64,000 bases of DNA from Chloroflexota bacterium (lineage in GTDB: Bacteria; Chloroflexota; Dehalococcoidia; JACQUO01), in assembly GCA_016210205.1 (NCBI GenBank), contig JACQUO010000034.1, positions 3,484 to 67,483 on the forward strand, given 5' to 3'. The notes beneath the pieces were generated by a model. The model worked only from the letters and a program-made list of their open reading frames with translations. It made no database searches and was not told the origin of the DNA. The translations under genes were made by a program, and so were the position numbers. This document shows positions 53,972 through 64,000 of this stretch, piece after piece. Positions within the stretch are counted from its first letter, which is position 1, and each line of letters opens with the position of its first letter.

Positions 53972-54058
53972 GGGGGTGCAGTCCAGTGTCCAAGAGCGAG
54001 GTCGGGAAGCGCGAACGGGAGCGCAAGGCGAATGAGGAACGTACCTAAGCATGTTGAA

Positions 54059-55111
54059 TCACGCTTTCAAGGCATGTTCTAGTTCTTCAATGAAAGACCG
54101 AGTGTCGGCGAAGTAGTTAGGATAGGCACGTTCAAGATCATTCAAGGAGTCTACAGATACCAGAACAGCATCTCCCGCTGCTCCTGCTCGTATCTGTTTC
54201 TCAATGTCCGCGTATTCTCTTGCCGCTTGCGGCAACTCCTTGCGTTCATAGCCAGAAATCGTCAAGCTCTCAGCGGCACTATCCAATTTCAGTAGGTAAT
54301 AGTCAGCATTTCTCACTGACGGGTTCCGCGTTTCGCGGAATGCTGTTGTGAACCCTTCAAGGGTGGTTTTTACACGCAGGGTATCGGCGTACGACCTAAG
54401 TTCAGGCACCAACTCCCGCCACGTGGTTGGTGTTTTTGGCACGGGTTCGGTACCCTCGTGCAGCGCATTTGCGGTTCCCATGAGTTGGAAGAATCGTTCC
54501 CAGTCTCGGCGACCCCTACTTGATTTCAACGCTTGGCTGGTAAAAGCATCAACTGTCTCAACTGTGGTAGCCCAAGAGTGCTGTAAATGAGTGCGAATCT
54601 GTACTTCAACCTTCATACCATTAAATACTTCGCTACGGTCGCTGTAATAGCGAAGTACGAGATGCCTACTTCGGTATCCAGATTCTCTTGGGCACGTAAT
54701 ATAGTTGTCTTCGTGGGCGCGTGCATGCCTGATTTTGCTTTCCTTGTATGCTTCGGTCAATTGGTTCACATTACTAACGGTCTGAACAATCGCTCGGCAG
54801 CCTCCAATATCTTGCATATCCCACAATTGCATCTTTTTAAATCGGTCTAGTTTCATATAGATGGAGAATAGCCGTTTGAGGCGTTGGGCTACAATGACAT
54901 TCCTATCTACAATGCGGGCTTGGCGGCGTAGGCTAATCTGAATCGTGTTCAATGGGAAAGCATGTGCCGCACGGAAGTTGTCTACAATGTCGAGTGCGTG
55001 GTTCCATCTGGCTGAGTCCGCTACATCCCGCCCACCCTGCAGGAGAGCCAAGAGAGTTTCCCCAGCCTGGTTGACTTCTCTGCGGGAGTATTGTGGTTGA
55101 GCCCAAGTCAT
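54059..55111 (-). CDS. stand-alone RelA/SpoT-domain (alarmone-synthetase-fold) protein with an uncharacterised C-terminal domain
   Basis: 350 aa from ATG 55111. Motifs DIGGCRAIV, ESGYRSRHLVL and EVQIRTHLQHSWATTVE. No HD, TGS or ACT regions. The track ORF extends upstream through a tRNA-like remnant. Confidence 0.8.
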   Translation of the reverse strand: MTWAQPQYSRREVNQAGETLLALLQGGRDVADSARWNHALDIVDNFRAAHAFPLNTIQISLRRQARIVDRNVIVAQRLKRLFSIYMKLDRFKKMQLWDMQDIGGCRAIVQTVSNVNQLTEAYKESKIRHARAHEDNYITCPRESGYRSRHLVLRYYSDRSEVFNGMKVEVQIRTHLQHSWATTVETVDAFTSQALKSSRGRRDWERFFQLMGTANALHEGTEPVPKTPTTWRELVPELRSYADTLRVKTTLEGFTTAFRETRNPSVRNADYYLLKLDSAAESLTISGYERKELPQAAREYADIEKQIRAGAAGDAVLVSVDSLNDLERAYPNYFADTRSFIEELEHALKA

Positions 55112-55202
55112 ATCAACATCTAACGGTAACTCATACTCGCTATCTGAGTCAAGTATATTGTTGCCGAAATAAGCACCTAAAGATGAACAGCCAGTGAGAC
55201 CA

Positions 55203-55279
55203 TGGAGCGGGAGACGGGACTCGAACCCGCGATAACCTGCTTGGAAGGATGGACTGTCGCTTAGCCCCGTTTTCCCGGC
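55203..55279 (-). pseudogene. tRNA-derived remnant (intact T-arm, acceptor 3' strand and CCA; degenerate 5' part)
   Basis: Minus strand 55230-55203 reads GCGGG-TTCGAGT-CCCGT-CTCCCGC-T-CCA. The upstream 49 nt do not form D or anticodon arms. Confidence 0.45.
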
Positions 55280-55464
55280 TTTCTGAACCTGAAAGGTGGA
55301 GAAAATCGCCTTTTTCCGCAACGAGTCAGATGACCGGTTTTGTTTGCCCTCCCGCCACTTGCTTGCCTGACAGGCCACAACCGGTTGCACCGCTCTTCTT
55401 TGTTTGATAGGCCAAGGGGGGTAAGGTCAATCCCATTATCGCTGACGGTCTACAAGGCTCTAGC

Positions 55465-56265
55465 TCAAGCGATCTTTTCACCGATGCAATAAGAAAGAAA
55501 GCCAAGCCTGGATTGCCTGCTCTCAATAAAATAGCTGGTACGATAGAAAACCCCGAAGAGCCAGTCGCCAATAATTGGAAGCAAGAGCGGTGATGACCCC
55601 AGCATATAGCCGCTAGGGAGAACGCCGTGTCCCCTGTCAACAAAACCGGCTTTCTGCATACCGCAGGAAAGTTTGGAAGGAGAATACAAATCCTCCCTTT
55701 CAAAAGGCAGTTTGCCCAGTGTCTTCAGTATAAAGTTACTGATTAATTTCATTGAGTATATGTTCGGCACGGTTACCAGGCATCGTCCCCCGGGCCGTAG
55801 GATACGGTGGGATTCCCTTAGAGCAGATATTGTATCACTGAAATGCTCCACAACCCCGAAGCTGAAGACATAATCGAACATACCAGAAGGGAAAGGCATG
55901 TGACGCACATCTCCCAAAACAAAGCCGCAGGAGAGGTCTTGCTGTCGACCCAAGGCCGTGGCTTTTGTGATAGCTTTAGAGGAGATGTCGAGGCCAAAGG
56001 CCCGATGTCCCTTCGCTCCTGAATAGAAGACCCACTGACCGGAGCCACAACCGGCATCAAGGATAACCCTTGTGCCATTAAGACCTGCAAGCGCCCTCTG
56101 CACCATTGGAAAGTGAGGGTCCTTGGCGAAGGGGTAACCTCCTCCAGGATACTGATCCCTGCGTCGTACAAAGCTCACATCTTGCTGGTCCCAGTAGCCA
56201 TCCCAGCCCTGCTTGAGGATGTTATCCTCATCAGGCTTCCACTTGGGTTTACTTCTTGACACCAT
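55465..56265 (-). CDS. class I SAM-dependent methyltransferase
   Basis: 266 aa. Motif I VILDAGCGSGQW, plus VVEHF and LRPGG motifs. Confidence 0.8.
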   Translation of the reverse strand: MVSRSKPKWKPDEDNILKQGWDGYWDQQDVSFVRRRDQYPGGGYPFAKDPHFPMVQRALAGLNGTRVILDAGCGSGQWVFYSGAKGHRAFGLDISSKAITKATALGRQQDLSCGFVLGDVRHMPFPSGMFDYVFSFGVVEHFSDTISALRESHRILRPGGRCLVTVPNIYSMKLISNFILKTLGKLPFEREDLYSPSKLSCGMQKAGFVDRGHGVLPSGYMLGSSPLLLPIIGDWLFGVFYRTSYFIESRQSRLGFLSYCIGEKIA

Positions 56266-56303
56266 TATTTCCTCTCATAAAGAAGTGCATTCTTGGCTGC
56301 TCA

Positions 56304-57842
56304 TTAGCGCTTCCGCTCCTTCATATATTCATGGACCCACAACTTCACGTCACCTTCTTTGGCCCGTGTCTGCCGCCACCTCATTTTGAGCGCCTTGGTT
56401 ACTATACCAATCGTATAGCGAAGGTCCTCCCGGGAATGGATTTTGCTGAGTAGCCTCCTGGGGTTGAGGAAGTCCCGCATCCTACGGTTCGTGAACTCTG
56501 CTTGAGCTCGGGCCTGCCAATGCTTGAGCTCCTGCCGAGAAAAGAACTTGGTGTCACAGCCGCCCCCCCCAAGAATATAGCCCCAGTTATTTACTTCATC
56601 CAGCAGTCCCTCTTTCTTAAATACTTCGTAGGCTGGGGTGCCTGGGAAAGGTCCCAAGATGTAGAAGAGAGCGAAATCAGTATCGCAATCGATGGCATAT
56701 TTTATAGTATCCTTAATTGAGTCCACCCCCTCATAGGGAAAGCCGATGATGAGGGTGCTAATGGTCCAAAGCCCAATGCTGTTAGCATAGCTAATCAGGG
56801 ACTTGGCCTTATCGAGCCGAATACTCTTGCCGATGAAACGCTGAGTCTCTGAGTTGCCGGATTCGATGCCGAAGGTGAGGCGATAACACCCACTGTCCTT
56901 CATTTTTCGGATGAGAACCTCATCCAGGGCCCAGAGGGCTACCCCATTAGGGGTGCACCACTTGATGTCAATTTTTCTGGCGATAATCTCGTCACAGATA
57001 GCCATCGCCCGCTGCCGATCATATGAAAAATTATCGTCGACGAAAGAAAACTCCCGAATGCCGTAGTCTCGGACTAGCAATTCTAATTCGTCCACGACAT
57101 TCTTGGGACTGCGTCCCCTCCAAGTATGCCCCCAGACGGAGTGGATGGAACAGAAGACACATCTGGCGGGGCAACCGCGGCTGGTGACGATGCCTAAGTG
57201 TGGGTGCCTCATACAATACTCATCATATAACCTGAAATATTTGAAATAAATGTCCATGGGCAAAAGATGCCGGGCTGGAAATGGTATCGAGTCTAAGGTT
57301 ACAATATAACCCCCACTCTCGTTGAAAATTACCTCGCCCTCCTTCCTGACAACAGTGCTTGGGACAGAGAAGATGTCACCCCCATTAATCAGCCTTTCCA
57401 CCAATTCCGAAAATATCGCCTCTCCTTCGCCCTTAACGACAATGTCAACATTATGGTCTGCAAGCACCATGTTTGGGTTTGCCGAGGCATGAGCGCCGCC
57501 TATTACCACGGGGATGTCTGGATTGACATCTTTGACCAACCGGGCGCAAGTGTGCGCGTCACTGGCGTATCCGGTGAACATGGAACTGATACCCACCACT
57601 GTTGGCCGGAAGCTCCGTATTACATCCGTAATTTCCCTGTCGCTCAGCCCTGTCCGAGTCCAACCATCACCCCTAGCCACATTCTCCATCCCCAGGGCAA
57701 GGGCATCCAATATCTTGACCTGATGCCCCTTTTGCTCGAGCATAGCGGCAATGTAGGCTAGGCCTAATGGAATGCTGACCGAGGGAATCATGGGGTCTGG
57801 GTCAGAGACCGTAACAGGCGGCCAGATTAAAAGAACCTTCAA
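56304..57842 (-). CDS. B12-binding-domain radical SAM protein (class B)
   Basis: N-terminal Rossmann-like B12 segment (KVLLIWPP...VVGISSMFT...VVIGGAHAS). Cluster motif RGCPARCVFCS. Start set at TTG 57842; the track start at 57959 overlaps the upstream gene. Confidence 0.85.
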   Translation of the reverse strand: MKVLLIWPPVTVSDPDPMIPSVSIPLGLAYIAAMLEQKGHQVKILDALALGMENVARGDGWTRTGLSDREITDVIRSFRPTVVGISSMFTGYASDAHTCARLVKDVNPDIPVVIGGAHASANPNMVLADHNVDIVVKGEGEAIFSELVERLINGGDIFSVPSTVVRKEGEVIFNESGGYIVTLDSIPFPARHLLPMDIYFKYFRLYDEYCMRHPHLGIVTSRGCPARCVFCSIHSVWGHTWRGRSPKNVVDELELLVRDYGIREFSFVDDNFSYDRQRAMAICDEIIARKIDIKWCTPNGVALWALDEVLIRKMKDSGCYRLTFGIESGNSETQRFIGKSIRLDKAKSLISYANSIGLWTISTLIIGFPYEGVDSIKDTIKYAIDCDTDFALFYILGPFPGTPAYEVFKKEGLLDEVNNWGYILGGGGCDTKFFSRQELKHWQARAQAEFTNRRMRDFLNPRRLLSKIHSREDLRYTIGIVTKALKMRWRQTRAKEGDVKLWVHEYMKERKR

Positions 57843-57894
57843 CCTCGCAACTCCAGTGTGAAATCCCGGTGAATAACGAACCTGCGGCAAACTA

Positions 57895-59343
57895 TTATTG
57901 CCTCGACTTGGACGATAGGGCCAAATATAATTTGCGTCCTGCCCTGCTATAGAGGGCAAAGTTTCGGCCCCATTCCCGTAAAGGGCGGAAGCGGGTCAGG
58001 ATATAAACTAGTTTACCCAAGGCCTTGCCCAGCCTGAATCGAAGGATAGTCTTCTCGTAGAGGGCGAACCCTTTTCGTAAAATCCTCTCGCGTTCCTCTT
58101 TGGTGAACTCCTTGGTCTCGAAAACAGGTGAGTTGTCCCGGTAGGAGATGTCTTCTAAGTAACTATCGGCAGGTACAAGAAAATGGGCGCTTTTCTTTAC
58201 CCATTCGATCACTTCGGTGCCTGGGTAAGGCACAAGGTTATAGAAATTAACGAAATCTGTAGGCAGGGACTCAGCAATCCTTAATGAATCGGTCGCTTGC
58301 TGGAAGGTCTCTCCGGGGTGACCAATGATAAAATTCACCGAGGTCCTTATGCCCACTTGATTGGACCATTCCACTACTTGGCGAACCTGCTCTGGCGTAA
58401 CACCCTTGTGTATTGCCTTCAATACCTCCTGGTTGCCGGACTCAAGACCGTAGGAAATAAACACACACCCGGAGGCCTTCATCTTGGCCAGCAACTCCTG
58501 GTCAACCCGGTCAGCCCTAATTCCGTTGTAGAGTTGGTAGGTTAATTTCAGACCTCGCTTTACTATCAGGTCACAAATTGTCTTCGCCCGGACAACATCA
58601 AAGCTGAAACAATCATCATTGATTGCGAAGTTACTGAACCCCCGGCTGACCCAATGTTCCAGCTCTGTTAATACATTTTCCGGGCTCCTGGCCCGGAAAC
58701 GATGGCCCATGGAGAGCTTAACGGAGCAAAAGCTGCAGCGGTAAGGGCATCCGCGGGAGGAGATAATGGGTAGACTCTTTTGAGCATAACAAGGATACCG
58801 GGTAATATCGAAGGCTTCATAATCTGGGAAAGGAAGAATATCCAAGTTCTGGACAAAAGGTGAATCTTCGTTTTCGACAATCTTCCCTCCATCGCGCCAG
58901 ATAAGGCCGGGGATGCGGCTGAAATCCGGTGCTCGCTTCCCCAGTTCCTCCAGAAAAGCCGGAAAAGACAACTCCCCTTCCCCCTTTAGGGCGAAGTCAG
59001 CACTTATTCCCTGTAATGTCTCACCTCTTACCGCCGATACATGGGGCCCCCCAATCATTATAGGCGCATCCGTATAGGCATCCAGCTTGGCTACCGCCTC
59101 CTTCACAGAATGATAGCAGTAGCTAAAAGCGGTGACGCCAATGAGGTCAGGCGAAAATTCATCCACCACCTCAAAAAGGCGACCTTCGTCCTCTTCTATC
59201 CCCTCATCAACAATGTTCACGAGGTAGCCCCTTTGCTTCAAAAGCGCCGTCAAGTAAGCGACGCCCATATGGGGATGACCGCTAATCGCCTTCCCCGTAC
59301 CGAACATCGACTTAAGTTTGGGAATTACGAATAAAACCCGCAA
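57895..59343 (-). CDS. B12-binding-domain radical SAM protein (class B)
   Basis: Cluster motif RGCPYRCSFCS. Start set at TTG 59343, preceded by AAAGGAGG. Confidence 0.85.
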   Translation of the reverse strand: MRVLFVIPKLKSMFGTGKAISGHPHMGVAYLTALLKQRGYLVNIVDEGIEEDEGRLFEVVDEFSPDLIGVTAFSYCYHSVKEAVAKLDAYTDAPIMIGGPHVSAVRGETLQGISADFALKGEGELSFPAFLEELGKRAPDFSRIPGLIWRDGGKIVENEDSPFVQNLDILPFPDYEAFDITRYPCYAQKSLPIISSRGCPYRCSFCSVKLSMGHRFRARSPENVLTELEHWVSRGFSNFAINDDCFSFDVVRAKTICDLIVKRGLKLTYQLYNGIRADRVDQELLAKMKASGCVFISYGLESGNQEVLKAIHKGVTPEQVRQVVEWSNQVGIRTSVNFIIGHPGETFQQATDSLRIAESLPTDFVNFYNLVPYPGTEVIEWVKKSAHFLVPADSYLEDISYRDNSPVFETKEFTKEERERILRKGFALYEKTILRFRLGKALGKLVYILTRFRPLREWGRNFALYSRAGRKLYLALSSKSRQ

Positions 59344-59363
59344 CCTAAACCTCCTTTGAACTT

Positions 59364-60302
59364 CTAAACTTGTCCTAGTAATAAATGTCGATACAGCCCA
59401 CGCAACGTGCCCCAATTAAAACCCAATAGGTTCCGCATCTTTCTGTGGATAAGGAATTTTATGTTGTAAATAATGGTGATGAACACAAGGTATGAGAAGC
59501 AGAACAGAACGAAATCACGCCTTCGGGCATGTTTCCTCATGAACCTTATCCGGCTCATACCCAGGTAGTAAGCAACTTTAGCTGATTGAACATCGTTGCA
59601 GCCTCCCAGGAACCGAGATGCCACATTGTCAGGAGCTAAGGCTACCTTATGCCAAGCCTTGGCCTTAGGGACATGGACAATCTTGTACCCCTTCTTCTCT
59701 ATTTGCATGGCATAATCCGATTCTTCGTAGCGAATAAAAAATTCCCTGTCGAAACCCTTCAAAGTGGATGCTATCTCTCGTTTGGTCATGAACACCGACA
59801 TGGAATGTCCATGTTTCATTATCCGCGGCTCGACAAACTGGCCGCGGTCCACCACATTAGTGTTAGCATACTGTGTCAGCCCTTTCCGTAGATCGATAAC
59901 GGCCCCACCAAAAAAAATCTTCGTCGGATCGTCGAAGTAATATATCATGGGGCCCACCAGCCCCACCTCCTCATCCTGCAACACTAGCTTCATCTCGCCG
60001 GTAGCGTTCTCATCCAAGACGATATCGGAATCAACGAAAAGCAAGTATTCGCCTCTCGCTATTCGCTGCCCCTCGTTCCTGGAATAAGCAGCGCCGAGGT
60101 TGCTTACATTCTGAATCAATATCACCTCGGAGTGTTCCTTCTCCATCGCTTCTGTAGTGCCATCGCTTGACCCATCATCGATAACGATTATCTCACTATT
60201 GGGATAGCTACTGCGTTTCAGCCAAGCAACGCAGTCAAGGACCTCTTCTTTCCTATTGTAAGTTGGAATGATTACGCTGACTAGGGGATATGACTCTCTC
60301 AT
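59364..60302 (-). CDS. family 2 glycosyltransferase with C-terminal hydrophobic anchor
   Basis: VSVIIPTYNR...IIVIDDGSSDGT, DxD (VDSD), and a C-terminal FVLFCFSYLVFITIIY segment. The start could also be 60347. Confidence 0.85.
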   Translation of the reverse strand: MRESYPLVSVIIPTYNRKEEVLDCVAWLKRSSYPNSEIIVIDDGSSDGTTEAMEKEHSEVILIQNVSNLGAAYSRNEGQRIARGEYLLFVDSDIVLDENATGEMKLVLQDEEVGLVGPMIYYFDDPTKIFFGGAVIDLRKGLTQYANTNVVDRGQFVEPRIMKHGHSMSVFMTKREIASTLKGFDREFFIRYEESDYAMQIEKKGYKIVHVPKAKAWHKVALAPDNVASRFLGGCNDVQSAKVAYYLGMSRIRFMRKHARRRDFVLFCFSYLVFITIIYNIKFLIHRKMRNLLGFNWGTLRGLYRHLLLGQV

Positions 60303-60312
60303 TACCTTTGTC

Positions 60313-61233
60313 CTATCTCGAAATGTTGCTGAGTATCGCCCGTCCAATCCTGGTTCCGACGGTGAGCTTCCGGCCCAATTTAGTTAGCAACCGGAACCTT
60401 AGGGCGAGTAGCACAATGTAACCAAGTCTGTAGCGGAGCACCCTATTGTAATAACCATGGGCATCTTCTAGCGGCTTCGAGCCTCCTCCCATACTCCAGT
60501 GAAATTCGTGGTAAACCTCCGCCATGGTCATCACCCGGAGCCCCCTATCTCTGACCATCCCTAGTAACTTCTCGAAGTTCGCGGTGCTAAGCTGGTCAGC
60601 CCCTTCACTGACCCGGTTGACGACATCATGGATTAGAAAAACGGCCCAAGCGCCTGTATCTACCACAGCCGATAAATATTCTGCCAGCCTCTCTTCGGTA
60701 AATACCTTCTCGCTCAAGGATATGGAATCTATTTGGAAAATATCCTCTACCTGGCAATTGCAAAAAGGGTCCCAGCGCGTTGTAGAGCTGATGGCAGCAC
60801 GCCCCATATGGTAGTCCCTTCCGGCAATCTCGATCACCCTGGCATCGACGCCGCCCCCAGGATAGGAGACGGCGGTAATTTTGTGCCCGTGAGCCTCTAA
60901 GATGGCTTTTGAGCTGACCAGCTCCTTTTCTATCTCAGCATATGACATAGCTACCAAATTGCCGTGGCTGGCAGTATGGCTTCCGACCTCCCAGCCATCC
61001 TCCTCGAGTTGCTTCAACTCGTTCCACCCCATTAATTGAACGCTGCCCGCTATCCCTTGCCAGACTCTACCTACAAAATCCGTGAGAACGAAAACCAGGC
61101 CTCGATACCCCCATTGCTTCATGATGGGATAGGCCACTTCATAGGTACTCATTCTGCCTTCATCGAAGGTGAAAGTCACGATGCCGCCGAAAGGCCCCCG
61201 GCTTTCCCGGTAAGGCGGTTTATCGTTCGCCAT
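60313..61233 (-). CDS. polysaccharide deacetylase (NodB homology / CE4) family protein
   Basis: 306 aa. TFTFDEG and GSHTASHG metal-site motifs. Confidence 0.8.
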   Translation of the reverse strand: MANDKPPYRESRGPFGGIVTFTFDEGRMSTYEVAYPIMKQWGYRGLVFVLTDFVGRVWQGIAGSVQLMGWNELKQLEEDGWEVGSHTASHGNLVAMSYAEIEKELVSSKAILEAHGHKITAVSYPGGGVDARVIEIAGRDYHMGRAAISSTTRWDPFCNCQVEDIFQIDSISLSEKVFTEERLAEYLSAVVDTGAWAVFLIHDVVNRVSEGADQLSTANFEKLLGMVRDRGLRVMTMAEVYHEFHWSMGGGSKPLEDAHGYYNRVLRYRLGYIVLLALRFRLLTKLGRKLTVGTRIGRAILSNISR

Positions 61234-61237
61234 TCAG

Positions 61238-61999
61238 TTAAATCCCTACCTTCTCCAGAGTGATTGAGAACATAGCAGACCTACTACTGCTATTGCGCAG
61301 GTCAGATTTCTCTAAACTCCACCACAGGCTTGATTTTGCGTCTCGTAGAGATGGAAATAGGGCTTGAAGTCCGTATTGGAGAACTTTTACCAAGTGGGCA
61401 TGGAAAGTCAAATCCACTACGACGAAACCTCGGCGGCGATACATCTCTATCAAATGCTCCGCACGATAACGCCTCATTTTCCTTCTATCATATAGCAGGT
61501 CGTTTATTTTTGATAAGAAGAATCCGCCGTTTGTTACACAGATGAAAATCCGTCCCCCTTTCCTGGTTATCCGAGCCATCTCATCCATAGCCTTGATATC
61601 ATTGGAAATATACTCCAAGACTGAGATGGAACAAACTTTACTGAAAGAACCATCGGCAAAGGGCAGCATCTCCGCGGAGCAGGCTATGAACTCGCAGCGT
61701 TGGCGGCTATCATCATCCAAGTAGCTGTGAGCAAAGCTGTCGGCTTTGCTCACAGCTACTCCAGATAAGTCGATACCTGTTGCTTTAAGGCCTCTCTTGG
61801 CCGCCTCGATAACGGTGAAACCGCAACCGCCTACACCGATGTCTAACAGCCTATCCCGGTCTGGATCCGTGTTGCCCAAATCCAGTCGCCGGAAAACCCT
61901 CTCAAGATAGCTCAACCGCCAGTTCTCAAGGTGGTAGTGTTGGAGTTTACTGTACTCCATGTCATAAAAGTCCCTTATTGTCTTATCATGGTCCATCAA
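61238..61999 (-). CDS. class I SAM-dependent methyltransferase
   Basis: 253 aa. Motif I LLDIGVGGCGFT and post-I GIDLS. Confidence 0.8.
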   Translation of the reverse strand: MMDHDKTIRDFYDMEYSKLQHYHLENWRLSYLERVFRRLDLGNTDPDRDRLLDIGVGGCGFTVIEAAKRGLKATGIDLSGVAVSKADSFAHSYLDDDSRQRCEFIACSAEMLPFADGSFSKVCSISVLEYISNDIKAMDEMARITRKGGRIFICVTNGGFFLSKINDLLYDRRKMRRYRAEHLIEMYRRRGFVVVDLTFHAHLVKVLQYGLQALFPSLRDAKSSLWWSLEKSDLRNSSSRSAMFSITLEKVGI

Positions 62000-62048
62000 T
62001 CTTCCTTATAACCAGCGCTTTATTAGCCATCTACTCGTTGACTCGTCC

Positions 62049-63470
62049 TTAAGACCCAGAGGCTTCGGTTCTACGGGAAAAGCTCCTGCGATAAGGACTG
62101 CGCTGGGATGAGCCTCGGATTAAATAGCTCAGGCCTTCGGCAAGGTCTCGTTTTAACAAGGAGAAGGACCTGAAGTCCTTGCTCAGACGCCTCAAAATAT
62201 AGCTGGGGCGCAGGTAAAAGCCGCGGAGCGCCTTCCGACGAATGTCTTCGAGGCCTTCCCTTGTCATACTATCGGGAACATAAACAGGGTAGACCCCAGC
62301 GTAGCCCTGGCCCAACTCCCCCCTGGCGAACCGGTCGATGGAATCGTTGCTCACCACTCCGGCCTGCAAGGCAATCTCATAGAGGTTCGAGCCAGGAAAG
62401 GGAGTGGGTATTGAGAGACCCACAATATTAAAACCAGACCTTTGCATGAAATCGACGGTCTCCCTCACCTCTTTCTCTGTCTCTGTGGGGTGACCTATCA
62501 TAAAGAAGCCATCTACATCGATGGCATATTTGCGACACCAGCCCATGACCTTGAGTATTTGCTCATTGGAGAACCTTTTCCCGATGACTTGTTCCCGAAC
62601 TCGCTGGTTGCCGGACTCGATGCCGAACACGAGAGTATAACACCCGGCTCGGCTTAAACTGGCCACAAGCTCCTCGTCCACCAAGTCGATCCTGGTATTC
62701 GCGGTCCATTTGACCTTAAGACCCTGGGATACAATCTCCTCGCAGAGCGCCAGGGTGAAGGTTCTATTCACGGTCAAAGTATCGTCCTGGAACTGGAAAT
62801 ACCTTCCATTGAGGTCACAGAGGCTTTTCATCTCAGTTACAATATTCTGGGGCGAGCGATGTCTGACTCTTTTGGCCACTGCCGGTCGGCTACAAAAATA
62901 GCAATTGAAGGGACATCCCCGAGTGGCAATCATAGCCGATTTATCCTGATAATCACTCTGGTCCAAAAGGTGTCTAGCGGGGAACGGGATGTCATCCAAA
63001 TTCTGTAAAGCTTCCCCACGGTGAAGCCCTTGAATCTTTTCACCACCTAAAACTCTCTTCACCAGTGCCGGGAAGGTCAACTCACCCTCTCCAGTGATGG
63101 CAAAGTCAAAGCAGGGGAACCGTTCAATGAACCTAGGGTCAGCGCTTATGTGAGCACCTCCCAGGGCAATACGAATAGCATCCCCAAACGTTCTTTTTAT
63201 CTCCTCGGCTATCTGGACCGCCCCTTGCAGCACTGGCGTCATGGCCGAGATGCCCACAACAAGGGGCCTATCGGTCTCAAGGACAGCCATGGTCTCCGCC
63301 AAAGTTAGGCCTTTAGCGCCAACATCCAAGATACTGACGCTGATATTTTCCCTTTCGAAGGCTGCAGCCAGATACAGTAGTCCCAGGGGAGGGAAGGTAG
63401 CGTCCAGTACAATGGGCTGTCCGTCCTTCTGGTAACAAATGGGAGGAGCGATAAGGGTGACTACGTTCAT
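62049..63470 (-). CDS. B12-binding-domain radical SAM protein (class B)
   Basis: Cluster motif RGCPFNCYFCS. Start set at ATG 63470, forming an ATGA overlap with the stop of the upstream SPASM gene. Confidence 0.85.
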   Translation of the reverse strand: MNVVTLIAPPICYQKDGQPIVLDATFPPLGLLYLAAAFERENISVSILDVGAKGLTLAETMAVLETDRPLVVGISAMTPVLQGAVQIAEEIKRTFGDAIRIALGGAHISADPRFIERFPCFDFAITGEGELTFPALVKRVLGGEKIQGLHRGEALQNLDDIPFPARHLLDQSDYQDKSAMIATRGCPFNCYFCSRPAVAKRVRHRSPQNIVTEMKSLCDLNGRYFQFQDDTLTVNRTFTLALCEEIVSQGLKVKWTANTRIDLVDEELVASLSRAGCYTLVFGIESGNQRVREQVIGKRFSNEQILKVMGWCRKYAIDVDGFFMIGHPTETEKEVRETVDFMQRSGFNIVGLSIPTPFPGSNLYEIALQAGVVSNDSIDRFARGELGQGYAGVYPVYVPDSMTREGLEDIRRKALRGFYLRPSYILRRLSKDFRSFSLLKRDLAEGLSYLIRGSSQRSPYRRSFSRRTEASGS

Positions 63471-64000
63471 GAACCTGGCCACCCTTGTTGCTGACCCTGA
63501 CTATCGCCATAGCGGCGGTGGCTGATCAGCCTGCCTGGAGGAAAACATCTGGTGAACACCGAAAAAAGGTTATATAAGCCCACATCGTTCATCCCACAAT
63601 TGAGACATTGCTTGTAGAGCTCTTTGCCATCCGCTAGACTTTTCCTAAACTTTCGATAATTAGGACTATTCCAGACTTTGGCGACTGAGGTCTCCAATAC
63701 ATTGCCAAAATCCAGAGGAACATTCATAAAATGGGCGCAGGGATAAGCGTTGCCGTCCCAGGTGATGGGCATATCAAGCCAAGGAACGAAGCAGGGTCCT
63801 TCACTCGTGCCTCGGTACATTCTTTCTACCGAGTATAGTAAATTATCGAGGTTCGCCACGGTATCCCACAGGCCGTGTTCTTCCGCCCACTTCTTCCCCA
63901 TGGCCACATGTCTCCCCAAAGTTGAAAGGTCTACTAAAAGGGCTTCTTCTGCGGCATCTTTATCGTGAATAAATAGAGGAATAAATTCCACACTGCAATC
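63467..64000 (-). CDS. radical SAM/SPASM-domain protein, C-terminal part only (gene runs off the window)
   Basis: The frame stays open to position 64000. Has a Cys-rich SPASM/twitch-like segment CFVPWLDMPITWDGNAYPCAHF...GN...W....Y..FR...CLNCG. The radical-SAM core is not in the window. Confidence 0.65.
   Translation of the reverse strand, partial: DCSVEFIPLFIHDKDAAEEALLVDLSTLGRHVAMGKKWAEEHGLWDTVANLDNLLYSVERMYRGTSEGPCFVPWLDMPITWDGNAYPCAHFMNVPLDFGNVLETSVAKVWNSPNYRKFRKSLADGKELYKQCLNCGMNDVGLYNLFSVFTRCFPPGRLISHRRYGDSQGQQQGWPGS

Follow-up and report, generated by a model that had tools for sequence, protein, structure and literature searches.

Positions 55465-64000 of the 64,000-nucleotide stretch analysed here (the window; contig JACQUO010000034.1 of a Chloroflexota bacterium) carry eight co-directional open reading frames (ORFs) on the minus strand, all of which were verified in the sequence. 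They encode three radical S-adenosylmethionine (SAM) enzymes possessing a B12-binding domain (B12a, B12b and B12c), the C-terminal part of a further radical-SAM enzyme of the twitch type, two methyltransferases (MT1 and MT2), a glycosyltransferase (GT2) and a protein of the polysaccharide deacetylase family (CE4). Another glycosyltransferase gene (GT4) lies just past the window edge, placing several glycosyltransferases in one co-directional array. The product of this cluster is probably a tailored oligo- or polysaccharide of the cell envelope, with radical tailoring of the growing glycan taking place in the cytoplasm; any particular reaction assignment is held with much less confidence than this general model. 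The reading is based on the glycosyltransferase-rich make-up of related clusters, on the flippase, GT-C and nucleoside diphosphate (NDP)-sugar genes found in them, and on the nearest solved relatives of the enzymes, which act on sugars.

A core of GT4, B12c, B12b and B12a, with orthologues of 39-57% identity, is conserved across loci from several bacterial and archaeal phyla, with twitch, GT2 and methyltransferase genes interleaved. We tentatively propose that the conserved core (GT4, twitch, B12c, GT2, B12b and B12a) may represent an unstudied, anciently shared pathway, in which cobalamin-type and twitch radical-SAM enzymes would rewrite the sugars of an envelope glycan during its assembly (for instance, unactivated carbons might be C-methylated, deoxygenated or epimerised by radical chemistry). 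The original prediction, made from the sequence alone, recognised no known pathway in this gene set. This agrees with the finding that none of the window proteins attains any curated NCBIfam cut-off and that no description of the gene set was found in the literature. To our knowledge, there is no characterised surface-glycan cluster in which B12-domain and twitch radical-SAM enzymes are interleaved with the glycosyltransferases.

Gene content and packing of the array

Domains were called by Pfam profile search of the window proteins, and families by the curated cut-offs of NCBIfam. Every domain named in the original prediction was confirmed by Pfam. The genes of the array are as follows (sizes in amino acids, aa; bit scores of Pfam domains):

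55465-56265, minus strand: MT1, class I SAM-dependent methyltransferase, 266 aa; Methyltransf_11, 84 bits; final gene of the array
56304-57842, minus strand: B12a, 512 aa from TTG at 57842; B12-binding, 82 bits, and Radical_SAM, 76 bits
57895-59343, minus strand: B12b, 482 aa from TTG at 59343; B12-binding, 52 bits, and Radical_SAM, 80 bits
59364-60302, minus strand: GT2, glycosyltransferase, 312 aa; Glycos_transf_2, 98 bits
60313-61233, minus strand: CE4, polysaccharide deacetylase family, 306 aa; Polysacc_deac_1, 71 bits
61238-61996, minus strand: MT2, class I SAM-dependent methyltransferase, 252 aa; Methyltransf_11, 60 bits
62049-63470, minus strand: B12c, 473 aa (NCBI MBI4217170.1); B12-binding, 72 bits, and Radical_SAM, 84 bits
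63467-64000, minus strand: 3' part of the twitch radical-SAM gene, C-terminal 177 codons; SPASM, 64 bits
~64729-65862, minus strand (extrapolated from Logan contig L001, see below): GT4, glycosyltransferase, 377 aa; upstream of the twitch gene

Along the direction of transcription, from beyond 65.9 kb to 55465, the gene order is GT4, twitch, B12c, MT2, CE4, GT2, B12b, B12a and MT1, and the eight genes in the window represent at most the downstream two-thirds of a longer cluster running in one direction. The tight packing originally described (gaps or overlaps of a few to 52 nt) was verified: with refined gene starts, the intergenic gaps are 38, 52, 20, 10, 4 and 52 nt, and the stop codon of the twitch gene overlaps the start codon of B12c as ATGA at 63467-63470 (local sequence GTTCATGAAC). 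The starts of B12a and B12b were refined to TTG codons at 57842 and 59343, with GGAG located 8 nt upstream of the former and AGGAGG 6 nt upstream of the latter. These starts retain the first beta-strand of the B12 domain, a strand which is lost in ATG-only gene calls. A 477-aa version of B12c starting from GTG gave no record in an exact look-up. The eight genes are an operon-like part of a larger, probable glycan assembly cluster; promoter-like and terminator-like sites in the region were found at chance level only, which speaks neither for nor against a single operon. A 28-nt imperfect palindrome (82% complementary) was also identified at 63447-63492, its centre being the ATGA overlap of the twitch gene and B12c, and it might form a structure at the site of translational coupling.

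The independent Logan contig L001 (4.7 kb, run SRR12113390) is identical to the window over 2757 of 2757 bases and prolongs the cluster by 1.9 kb past the window (position 1901 of L001 corresponds to position 64000). Two other Logan contigs, L168 and L169 (runs SRR12113390 and SRR12113401), encode the exact CE4 of the window, with L168 continuing after CE4 into GT2 (312 aa, the same gene call), B12b and B12a. Since these three contigs reproduce the cluster sequence, the cluster DNA is not an assembly accident. The radical-SAM core that had been looked for beyond position 64000 was found there, with L001 supplying the full twitch gene (413 aa, to ~64708; Radical_SAM and SPASM domains) and then GT4. 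No short ORF and no peptide-related gene was identified in the extension, which reaches ~65,900; GT4 is on record only in this same contig.

The hydrophobic C-terminal anchor originally noted in GT2 was recovered as one predicted transmembrane segment (residues 263-286 of 312, by hydropathy). It is the sole convincing hydrophobic segment above threshold among the window proteins, the remaining flagged segments being Rossmann-type N-terminal regions of B12c and GT4. As they show no genuine hydrophobic segment above threshold, the radical-SAM proteins and the methyltransferases look soluble. CE4 also lacks an N-terminal hydrophobic segment above threshold and is for this reason probably located in the cytoplasm.

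Within the coding sequence of MT2, at 61720-61760, two perfectly complementary 18-nt arms enclose a 5-nt loop; this inverted repeat encodes VAVSKADSFAHSY. The same hairpin is present in L001, is unique in the window and was not seen in any other fetched locus; by a rough estimate, its chance origin within 11 kb is very unlikely. Rfam analysis of 53-64 kb returned only chance-level microRNA-like matches, on this coding hairpin.

Related loci and their gene content

Relatives of B12c comprise more than 120 cluster representatives (E < 1e-124, 42-55% identity). Searches among GTDB species representatives and in JGI metagenomes retrieved loci with relatives of 39-52% identity, for which the labels of the metagenome-assembled genomes (MAGs) are Gammaproteobacteria, Bathyarchaeota, Omnitrophota, Woesebacteria, Thermotogaceae and Deltaproteobacteria. 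Inspection of the best 80 of 592 relatives among GTDB species representatives showed all of these to be MAGs or single-cell genomes, the closest being 49% identical, and many of these carriers to be small-genome Patescibacteria and uncultivated archaea. No carrier was found among cultured organisms, and the core has so far been seen only in genomes obtained from metagenomes or single cells, belonging to Chloroflexota, Patescibacteria, Omnitrophota, Aureabacteria and Bathyarchaeia. In plasmid and phage collections, the B12 radical-SAM relatives were all distant (identity of 32% or less), giving no sign of a plasmid or phage origin.

The three B12-domain proteins share 30-33% pairwise identity and are therefore regarded as old paralogues. 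Each has its own counterpart of 43-57% identity in related loci, with orthologues of B12a found in L002 (50%) and L006 (Woesebacteria, 45%) and those of B12b in L002, L085, L089, L090 and L006 (48-57%). Given that the paralogues are only ~30% alike, the trio forms an old conserved set. Homologues of MT1 in related clusters have 30-35% identity, and homologues of MT2 (31-44%) stand beside the B12c orthologues in L007, L011, L091, L093, L098, L099 and L101. The gene orders of representative loci are given below (MT, methyltransferase; identities in brackets).

L002 (Logan metagenome): twitch, GT4 (46%), twitch, B12c (55%), twitch, GT2, B12b (55%), GT2, FAD-oxidase family, PMT_2, MT (35%), B12a (50%)
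L085/L086 (ENA metagenomes): PMT_2, GT2, twitch, GT4, twitch, B12c, GT2, B12b, MT, Polysacc_synt flippase
L087 (Aureabacteria): Polysacc_synt flippase, GT2, MT, twitch, GT4, twitch, B12c, GT2, DUF2079
L083 (Gammaproteobacteria MAG): the core, with nine glycosyltransferases around it
L006 (Woesebacteria): GT4, B12c (43%), twitch, GT2, B12b (49%), B12a (45%)
L170 (second Chloroflexi MAG, GCA_016215025.1, JACRMI010000153.1, 3103-20119): Wzx, GT2, GT2, MT, radical SAM, GT2, GT4, MT, MT, GT4

To put numbers on this co-occurrence, loci of at least 8 kb with a B12c orthologue (n = 18) were compared with control loci containing only more distant B12 radical-SAM relatives (n = 102). Homologues of GT2 were present in 14 of the 18 orthologue loci and in 15 of the 102 control loci (p = 2e-7), a result showing that the adjacency seen in the window is not fortuitous, in line with the co-occurrence beyond this genome on which the original prediction had been staked. 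The other families are likewise enriched, with GT4 homologues in 7/18 and 7/102 loci (p = 1e-3), twitch homologues in 6/18 and 8/102 (p = 7e-3) and methyltransferase homologues in 6/18 and 2/102 (p = 1e-4). Among a further 123 neighbour ORFs, Pfam identified 15 NDP-sugar epimerases or dehydratases, 12 further GT2, 11 GT1/GT4 and 11 methyltransferases, together with smaller numbers of DegT sugar aminotransferases (three) and nucleotidyltransferases (three). The related clusters contain three to nine glycosyltransferases each, as well as TPR proteins. A Polysacc_synt flippase is encoded in L085/L086, L087 and L170, PMT_2 in L002, L083 and L085, and an AftD-like GT-C in L007. No peptide- or hopanoid-related family was found among the commonest neighbour families of the related loci.

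The locus of the second Chloroflexi MAG (L170) encodes a GT4 that is 40% identical to the GT4 of the window cluster. Its cluster adjoins LysM/YkuD cell-wall genes and is followed by two large proteins (1280 and 770 aa) with no Pfam match.

Family relationships of the encoded enzymes

The B12-binding domain PF02310 was identified in B12a, B12b and B12c at 82, 52 and 72 bits (gathering score 32.1), and the radical-SAM core PF04055 at 76-84 bits. The cysteines of the CxxxCxxC motif are located at positions 225/229/232 of B12a (CPARCVFC), 200/204/207 of B12b (CPYRCSFC) and 186/190/193 of B12c (CPFNCYFC); the motifs originally read as RGCPARCVFCS, RGCPYRCSFCS and RGCPFNCYFCS, as well as TFDEG and HTASH of CE4, are all present in the translations. 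By their domains the three proteins fit class B radical-SAM enzymes, and they may bind cobalamin and use it, for methyl transfer or in another way, no sequence motif being diagnostic of this. Class B radical-SAM enzymes that methylate carbon centres include GenK and GenD1 (gentamicin), Fms7 (fortimicin) and MoeK5 (moenomycin) (PMC9204698).

By far the best curated model for B12a is the Sden_1168 family (246 bits over residues 40-447; cut-off 575, not reached). Since SD1168 itself has no known physiological substrate (PMC9204698), this match allows no transfer of function. B12b is best matched by the model of ApyD (171 bits against a cut-off of 750) and B12c by that of HpnJ (151 bits against 577.6). 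B12c also scored 127.9 bits with the AprD4 model NF033070, below its equivalog cut-off of 500, and 121 bits with the BchE model, for which the cut-off is 481. Source databases label B12c orthologues (P0019, P0034, P0045, P0088 and others) as 'YgiQ family' or as anaerobic Mg-protoporphyrin IX monomethyl ester cyclase (BchE); in view of the BchE score of the window protein, these labels look like over-annotation.

Among solved structures, B12b is closest in sequence to 9ccb (MgmA, a glutamine methylase of methyl-coenzyme M reductase) and to AprD4, while the nearest to B12c by sequence is AprD4 (E = 3e-31). AprD4 was also the best fold match of the AlphaFold model of B12c (pLDDT 88.9; 6fd2, TM 0.70-0.73 for chain B, with 22-23% identity in the fold alignment), followed by TsrM, MgmA, CysS, TokK and OxsB. 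Judged from sequence and predicted structure, the relationship between B12c and AprD4 is one of resemblance and not of family membership. The substrates of AprD4 and BtrN, the latter being the nearest solved relative of the twitch enzyme (see below), are aminoglycoside sugars, and AprD4 is not known to use cobalamin. It is described in its structure record as a dehydratase, not a methylase. In the related locus L085 (1601-3691), a class I methyltransferase domain and a B12-binding radical-SAM enzyme were observed to be fused in one 696-aa protein, whose gene adjoins two more B12 radical-SAM genes and a PMT_2 GT-C.

The 413-aa radical-SAM protein possesses its cluster-binding motif at C77-C81-C84 and matches the SPASM model PF13186 (63.6 bits; gathering score 21.5). 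To this extent the SPASM designation in the original prediction is correct. Full SPASM domains contain seven or eight conserved cysteines, including CxxCx5Cx3C, and hold two auxiliary [4Fe-4S] clusters. This two-cluster set is absent from the protein, whose C-terminal cysteines are C306, C324, C368 and C371 (C-x17-C-x43-C-x2-C), plus C388; four such cysteines suffice for one cluster. We take this spacing to resemble the one-cluster 'twitch' pattern of BtrN. Because of these four cysteines, and because the best PDB match is BtrN (C-terminal domain only) and the best NCBIfam match is the twitch family N_Twi_rSAM, the enzyme is termed twitch here and not full SPASM. No PqqD/RRE domain was detected in the protein by Pfam.

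The adjacent GT2 and CE4 genes had been likened to the pairs ArnC/ArnD and HpnI/HpnK, and this part of the original prediction did not stand. In sequence comparison with PDB entries, GT2 matched chondroitin synthase at 5e-18 (68 bits) and ArnC at only about 4e-4 (22 bits), with GalT1 and PglI also among its matches, and it is on this account far closer to chain-extending GT-A enzymes than to ArnC. The ArnC model is not among its 25 best NCBIfam matches. CE4 contains TFDEG and an intact HTASH, the usual metal-binding motif of CE4 enzymes being TFDDG. At E <= 0.01 it matched only the NCBIfam models of HfsH, PdaB, IcaB, PgaB and YlxY, with no match to those of ArnD and HpnK. The two proteins consequently fall outside the ArnC/ArnD/ArnT system, GT2 not being of the ArnC type and CE4 matching no ArnD model. 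The nearest solved structure to CE4 is the deacetylase 6dq3. Among 5.8 billion proteins, its relatives amounted to itself and two partial homologues (35-39% identity over ~36% of its length), with none detected for its C-terminal half, and no CE4 homologue was found in any related locus. CE4 is, as far as its sequence relationships indicate, an orphan, lineage-specific accessory gene, and since it is missing from every related locus, the GT2 and CE4 pair is not the conserved logic of the system.

The low-GC island and the function of the cluster

The cluster is located on a low-GC island, which starts at 54041 and runs beyond the end of the window. The GC content is 65.7% at 1-54000, 50.2% at 54041-64000 and 49.6% in L001, and GC at third codon positions (GC3) is 0.91-0.93 in host genes versus 0.49-0.61 in island genes. 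The junction (53972-54060) directly follows the glycyl-tRNA synthetase gene: between adjacent 200-nt bins at 54000 the GC content drops from 0.73 to 0.50, and across the junction GC3 falls from 0.93 to 0.49. Low-GC islands carrying surface-glycan genes are common in real genomes, and the cluster appears to lie on a horizontally acquired island of this kind, as is often the case for strain-variable surface-glycan loci.

The first island gene (54059-55111, minus strand) encodes a RelA/SpoT-domain protein of ~350 aa with a full-length match to the PADLOC defence candidate PDC-S33 (E = 3.6e-118). Between this gene and the cluster, a string resembling the 3' end of a tRNA (T-arm, acceptor strand and CCA; GGTTCGAGTCCCGTCTCCCGCTCCA) is present at 55203-55227 on the minus strand. 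It is unique in the window, with 0 occurrences expected by chance. The sequence GCGGGAG at 55347-55353, ~150 nt upstream of the string, pairs with its CTCCCGC, and the 160-nt fold is no better than that of shuffled sequences (z = -0.3). Neither ARAGORN nor Rfam called a tRNA at this position; together with the fold result, this led to rejection of a tRNA gene here and to treatment of the string as a fragment. It may be the remnant of an integration or att site at the downstream edge of the island.

In the favoured reading, that of a tailored envelope glycan, GT4 and GT2 would extend a sugar chain at the cytoplasmic face of the membrane, most likely on a polyprenyl-phosphate carrier, and in the intervals between glycosyl transfers the soluble radical-SAM enzymes and methyltransferases would tailor single sugars prior to export. 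The B12-domain enzymes could act at unactivated carbons, either by C-methylation (like GenK, GenD1 and MoeK5) or by deoxygenation or rearrangement (like AprD4 and HpnJ). The twitch enzyme may be a BtrN-like radical dehydrogenase or an epimerase, and MT1 and MT2 may carry out O- or N-methylation. CE4, an extra in the Chloroflexota version, could deacetylate an N-acetyl sugar and so expose an amine, on which the neighbouring MT2 might then act. Flipping of the completed unit and its attachment on the outer side of the membrane would fall to flippase and GT-C genes expected beyond the window. The product class given in the original prediction, a modified glycan or lipid-linked sugar, fits this evidence.

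Of known systems, Wzx-dependent surface polysaccharide or O-antigen-type clusters are similar in their co-directional GT2/GT4 arrays, in the Polysacc_synt, GT-C and NDP-sugar genes of the relatives and in their location on low-GC variable islands. They differ from the present cluster in that three conserved B12-domain and one to three twitch radical-SAM enzymes are here interleaved with the glycosyltransferases, and in that this window has no flippase, polymerase or initiating transferase. MoeK5 modifies the sugar of a lipid-linked saccharide between glycosyl-transfer steps and so resembles, by description, the mechanism proposed here. Moenomycin, however, is a phosphoglycolipid antibiotic secreted by Streptomyces, and its pathway has one such class B enzyme, compared with three in this cluster.

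Several points weigh against the envelope-glycan reading. The window contains no flippase, polymerase, initiating phosphoglycosyltransferase or NDP-sugar gene, and no Wzx flippase, polymerase, GT-C or initiating phosphoglycosyltransferase was found within 54041-65900. The original prediction had also recorded the absence of Wzx/Wzy/ABC export genes; this holds for the window itself but may be an effect of the window edge, as relatives carry Polysacc_synt and PMT_2. Export and NDP-sugar genes at this locus are thus an extrapolation by analogy with the relatives, and no initiating transferase family ranks among the 25 most frequent families in the neighbourhood of these. Identity between the twitch, GT2 and methyltransferase genes of the window cluster and their counterparts in related clusters is only 22-38%, and they may not be strict orthologues. 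As no enzyme attains a curated family cut-off, the specific reactions are guesses, and their chemistry is not decidable by computation; C-methylation by B12c may be wrong, the closest fold, AprD4, being that of a non-methyltransferase. The substrate could be an NDP-sugar, a lipid-linked oligomer or a small soluble glycoside. Finally, the junction lacks confirmation from an independent assembly, and the host assignment could be an artefact of assembly or binning.

In a first alternative, the cluster would make an aminoglycoside-like pseudo-oligosaccharide or other glycoside, a secreted secondary metabolite and not an envelope glycan, by means of glycosyltransferases, a deacetylase, class B radical-SAM C-methyltransferases, an AprD4-like dehydratase, a BtrN-like dehydrogenase and N-methyltransferases. 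The best solved relatives, AprD4 (by sequence and fold for B12c) and BtrN (for the twitch domain), are indeed aminoglycoside enzymes, the cluster lies on a horizontally acquired island, and its mix of GT4, deacetylase, several B12 radical-SAM enzymes and SAM methyltransferases resembles gentamicin tailoring as generally known. Gentamicin tailoring involves GenK and GenD1 (PMC9204698). This explanation is considered unlikely, as the AprD4 identity is only 22-23% and the model score 128 bits against 500, a cyclitol synthase was seen neither in the window nor in the most frequent families flanking related loci, and the annotated neighbours include no identified resistance gene or dedicated exporter. 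The Wzx, PMT_2/AftD-like GT-C and TPR proteins and up to nine glycosyltransferases of the relatives constitute instead an envelope-glycan signature, and many carriers are small-genome Patescibacteria and uncultivated archaea. Tailoring of a glycolipid head group is a similarly improbable alternative, in which a glycosyltransferase adds an N-acetylhexosamine to a lipid, CE4 deacetylates it and a B12-type enzyme contracts or rearranges the ring, as in the formation of bacteriohopanetetrol cyclitol ether by HpnI, HpnK and HpnJ or in calditol synthase chemistry. Such a sequence of glycosyl transfer, N-deacetylation and B12-type radical-SAM ring reaction is documented for HpnI/HpnK/HpnJ and Cds, with HpnJ proposed to contract the glucosamine ring after the action of HpnI and HpnK (PMC13459092). 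Adjacent glycosyltransferase, deacetylase and B12 radical-SAM genes, the membrane anchor of GT2 and HpnJ as the top NCBIfam match of B12c (151 bits) are consistent with it. Against the HpnJ equivalog cut-off of 577.6, on the other hand, B12a, B12b and B12c score 167.7, 137.2 and 150.8 bits (a quarter of the cut-off for B12c), CE4 is neither of the HpnK type nor conserved in any related cluster, and neither the window nor the most frequent neighbour families include a squalene-hopene cyclase or a lipid-synthesis gene. Hopanoid genes are likewise absent from the ORFs at 50-64 kb and from the families seen next to related loci. Related clusters have three to nine glycosyltransferases each, and several of them also a flippase, which points to an oligosaccharide and not to a single head group, and the Hpn logic offered in the original prediction is reduced to a loose analogy.

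The original prediction also allowed for a ribosomally synthesised and post-translationally modified peptide (RiPP) with its precursor past position 64000, in which the B12 enzymes would C-methylate the peptide, the SPASM-type enzyme cross-link or epimerise it and GT2 glycosylate it. SPASM-type radical-SAM enzymes are common RiPP maturases and one is present in the cluster, ApyD, a RiPP enzyme, is the top NCBIfam match of B12b (171 bits), and the rSAM_ocin_1 model gave 73-119 bits. These scores are far under the cut-offs of 750 and 282, however, and the 1.9 kb past 64000 is occupied by the radical-SAM core and GT4; the array itself, whose intergenic gaps do not exceed 52 nt, cannot accommodate a precursor. 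With a radical-SAM protein that has the one-cluster twitch pattern and no PqqD/RRE domain, glycan genes as the neighbours in relatives, and a peptidase, RiPP-recognition or peptide-exporter family among the commonest neighbours in 0 of 26 related loci, this proposal is very improbable. A last alternative concerns ownership only and would leave the functional reading unchanged, namely that assembly or binning wrongly joined a 66% GC genome at ~54040 to sequence of a 50% GC organism. CE4 and B12c are deposited as MBI4217168.1 and MBI4217170.1, assigned to a Chloroflexota MAG (78,151-bp contig). A 23-point GC step within 200 nt, accompanied by the fall in GC3, would suit a chimera, and no independent contig across the junction was retrieved: L001, L168 and L169 all lie within the low-GC part, and exact look-ups of the 350-aa defence candidate and of MT1 gave no record. 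An artefact is nevertheless doubtful, given the frequency of low-GC surface-glycan islands in real genomes, the tRNA-like remnant and candidate defence gene at the edge, which fit an integration hotspot, and the related cluster in the second Chloroflexi MAG.

Surface-glycan clusters as a category are ordinary; what is unusual here is a widespread radical-SAM complement conserved across domains. If the enzymes perform known reactions, the cluster would be merely another uncharacterised polysaccharide locus. Little is known of the envelope chemistry of Chloroflexota, Patescibacteria, Omnitrophota and Bathyarchaeia, as few of them have been cultured. A module of three B12-domain enzymes and twitch enzymes in glycan assembly, recurring across phyla, leads one to expect sugars with modifications at unactivated carbons, beyond the reach of ordinary sugar-nucleotide chemistry. 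Its location on a low-GC island beside a candidate defence gene fits strain-variable surface glycans, e.g. under phage pressure. If confirmed, the cluster would give radical-SAM enzymology three new orthologue groups that are well defined and whose class of substrate is tractable, and offer a route to new monosaccharides. If the proposal of an anciently shared core pathway is true, radical sugar chemistry, so far known from antibiotic pathways and lipid head groups, would extend to the assembly of primary cell-surface glycans, and new branched or deoxy sugars would be predicted on the surfaces of uncultivated microbes.

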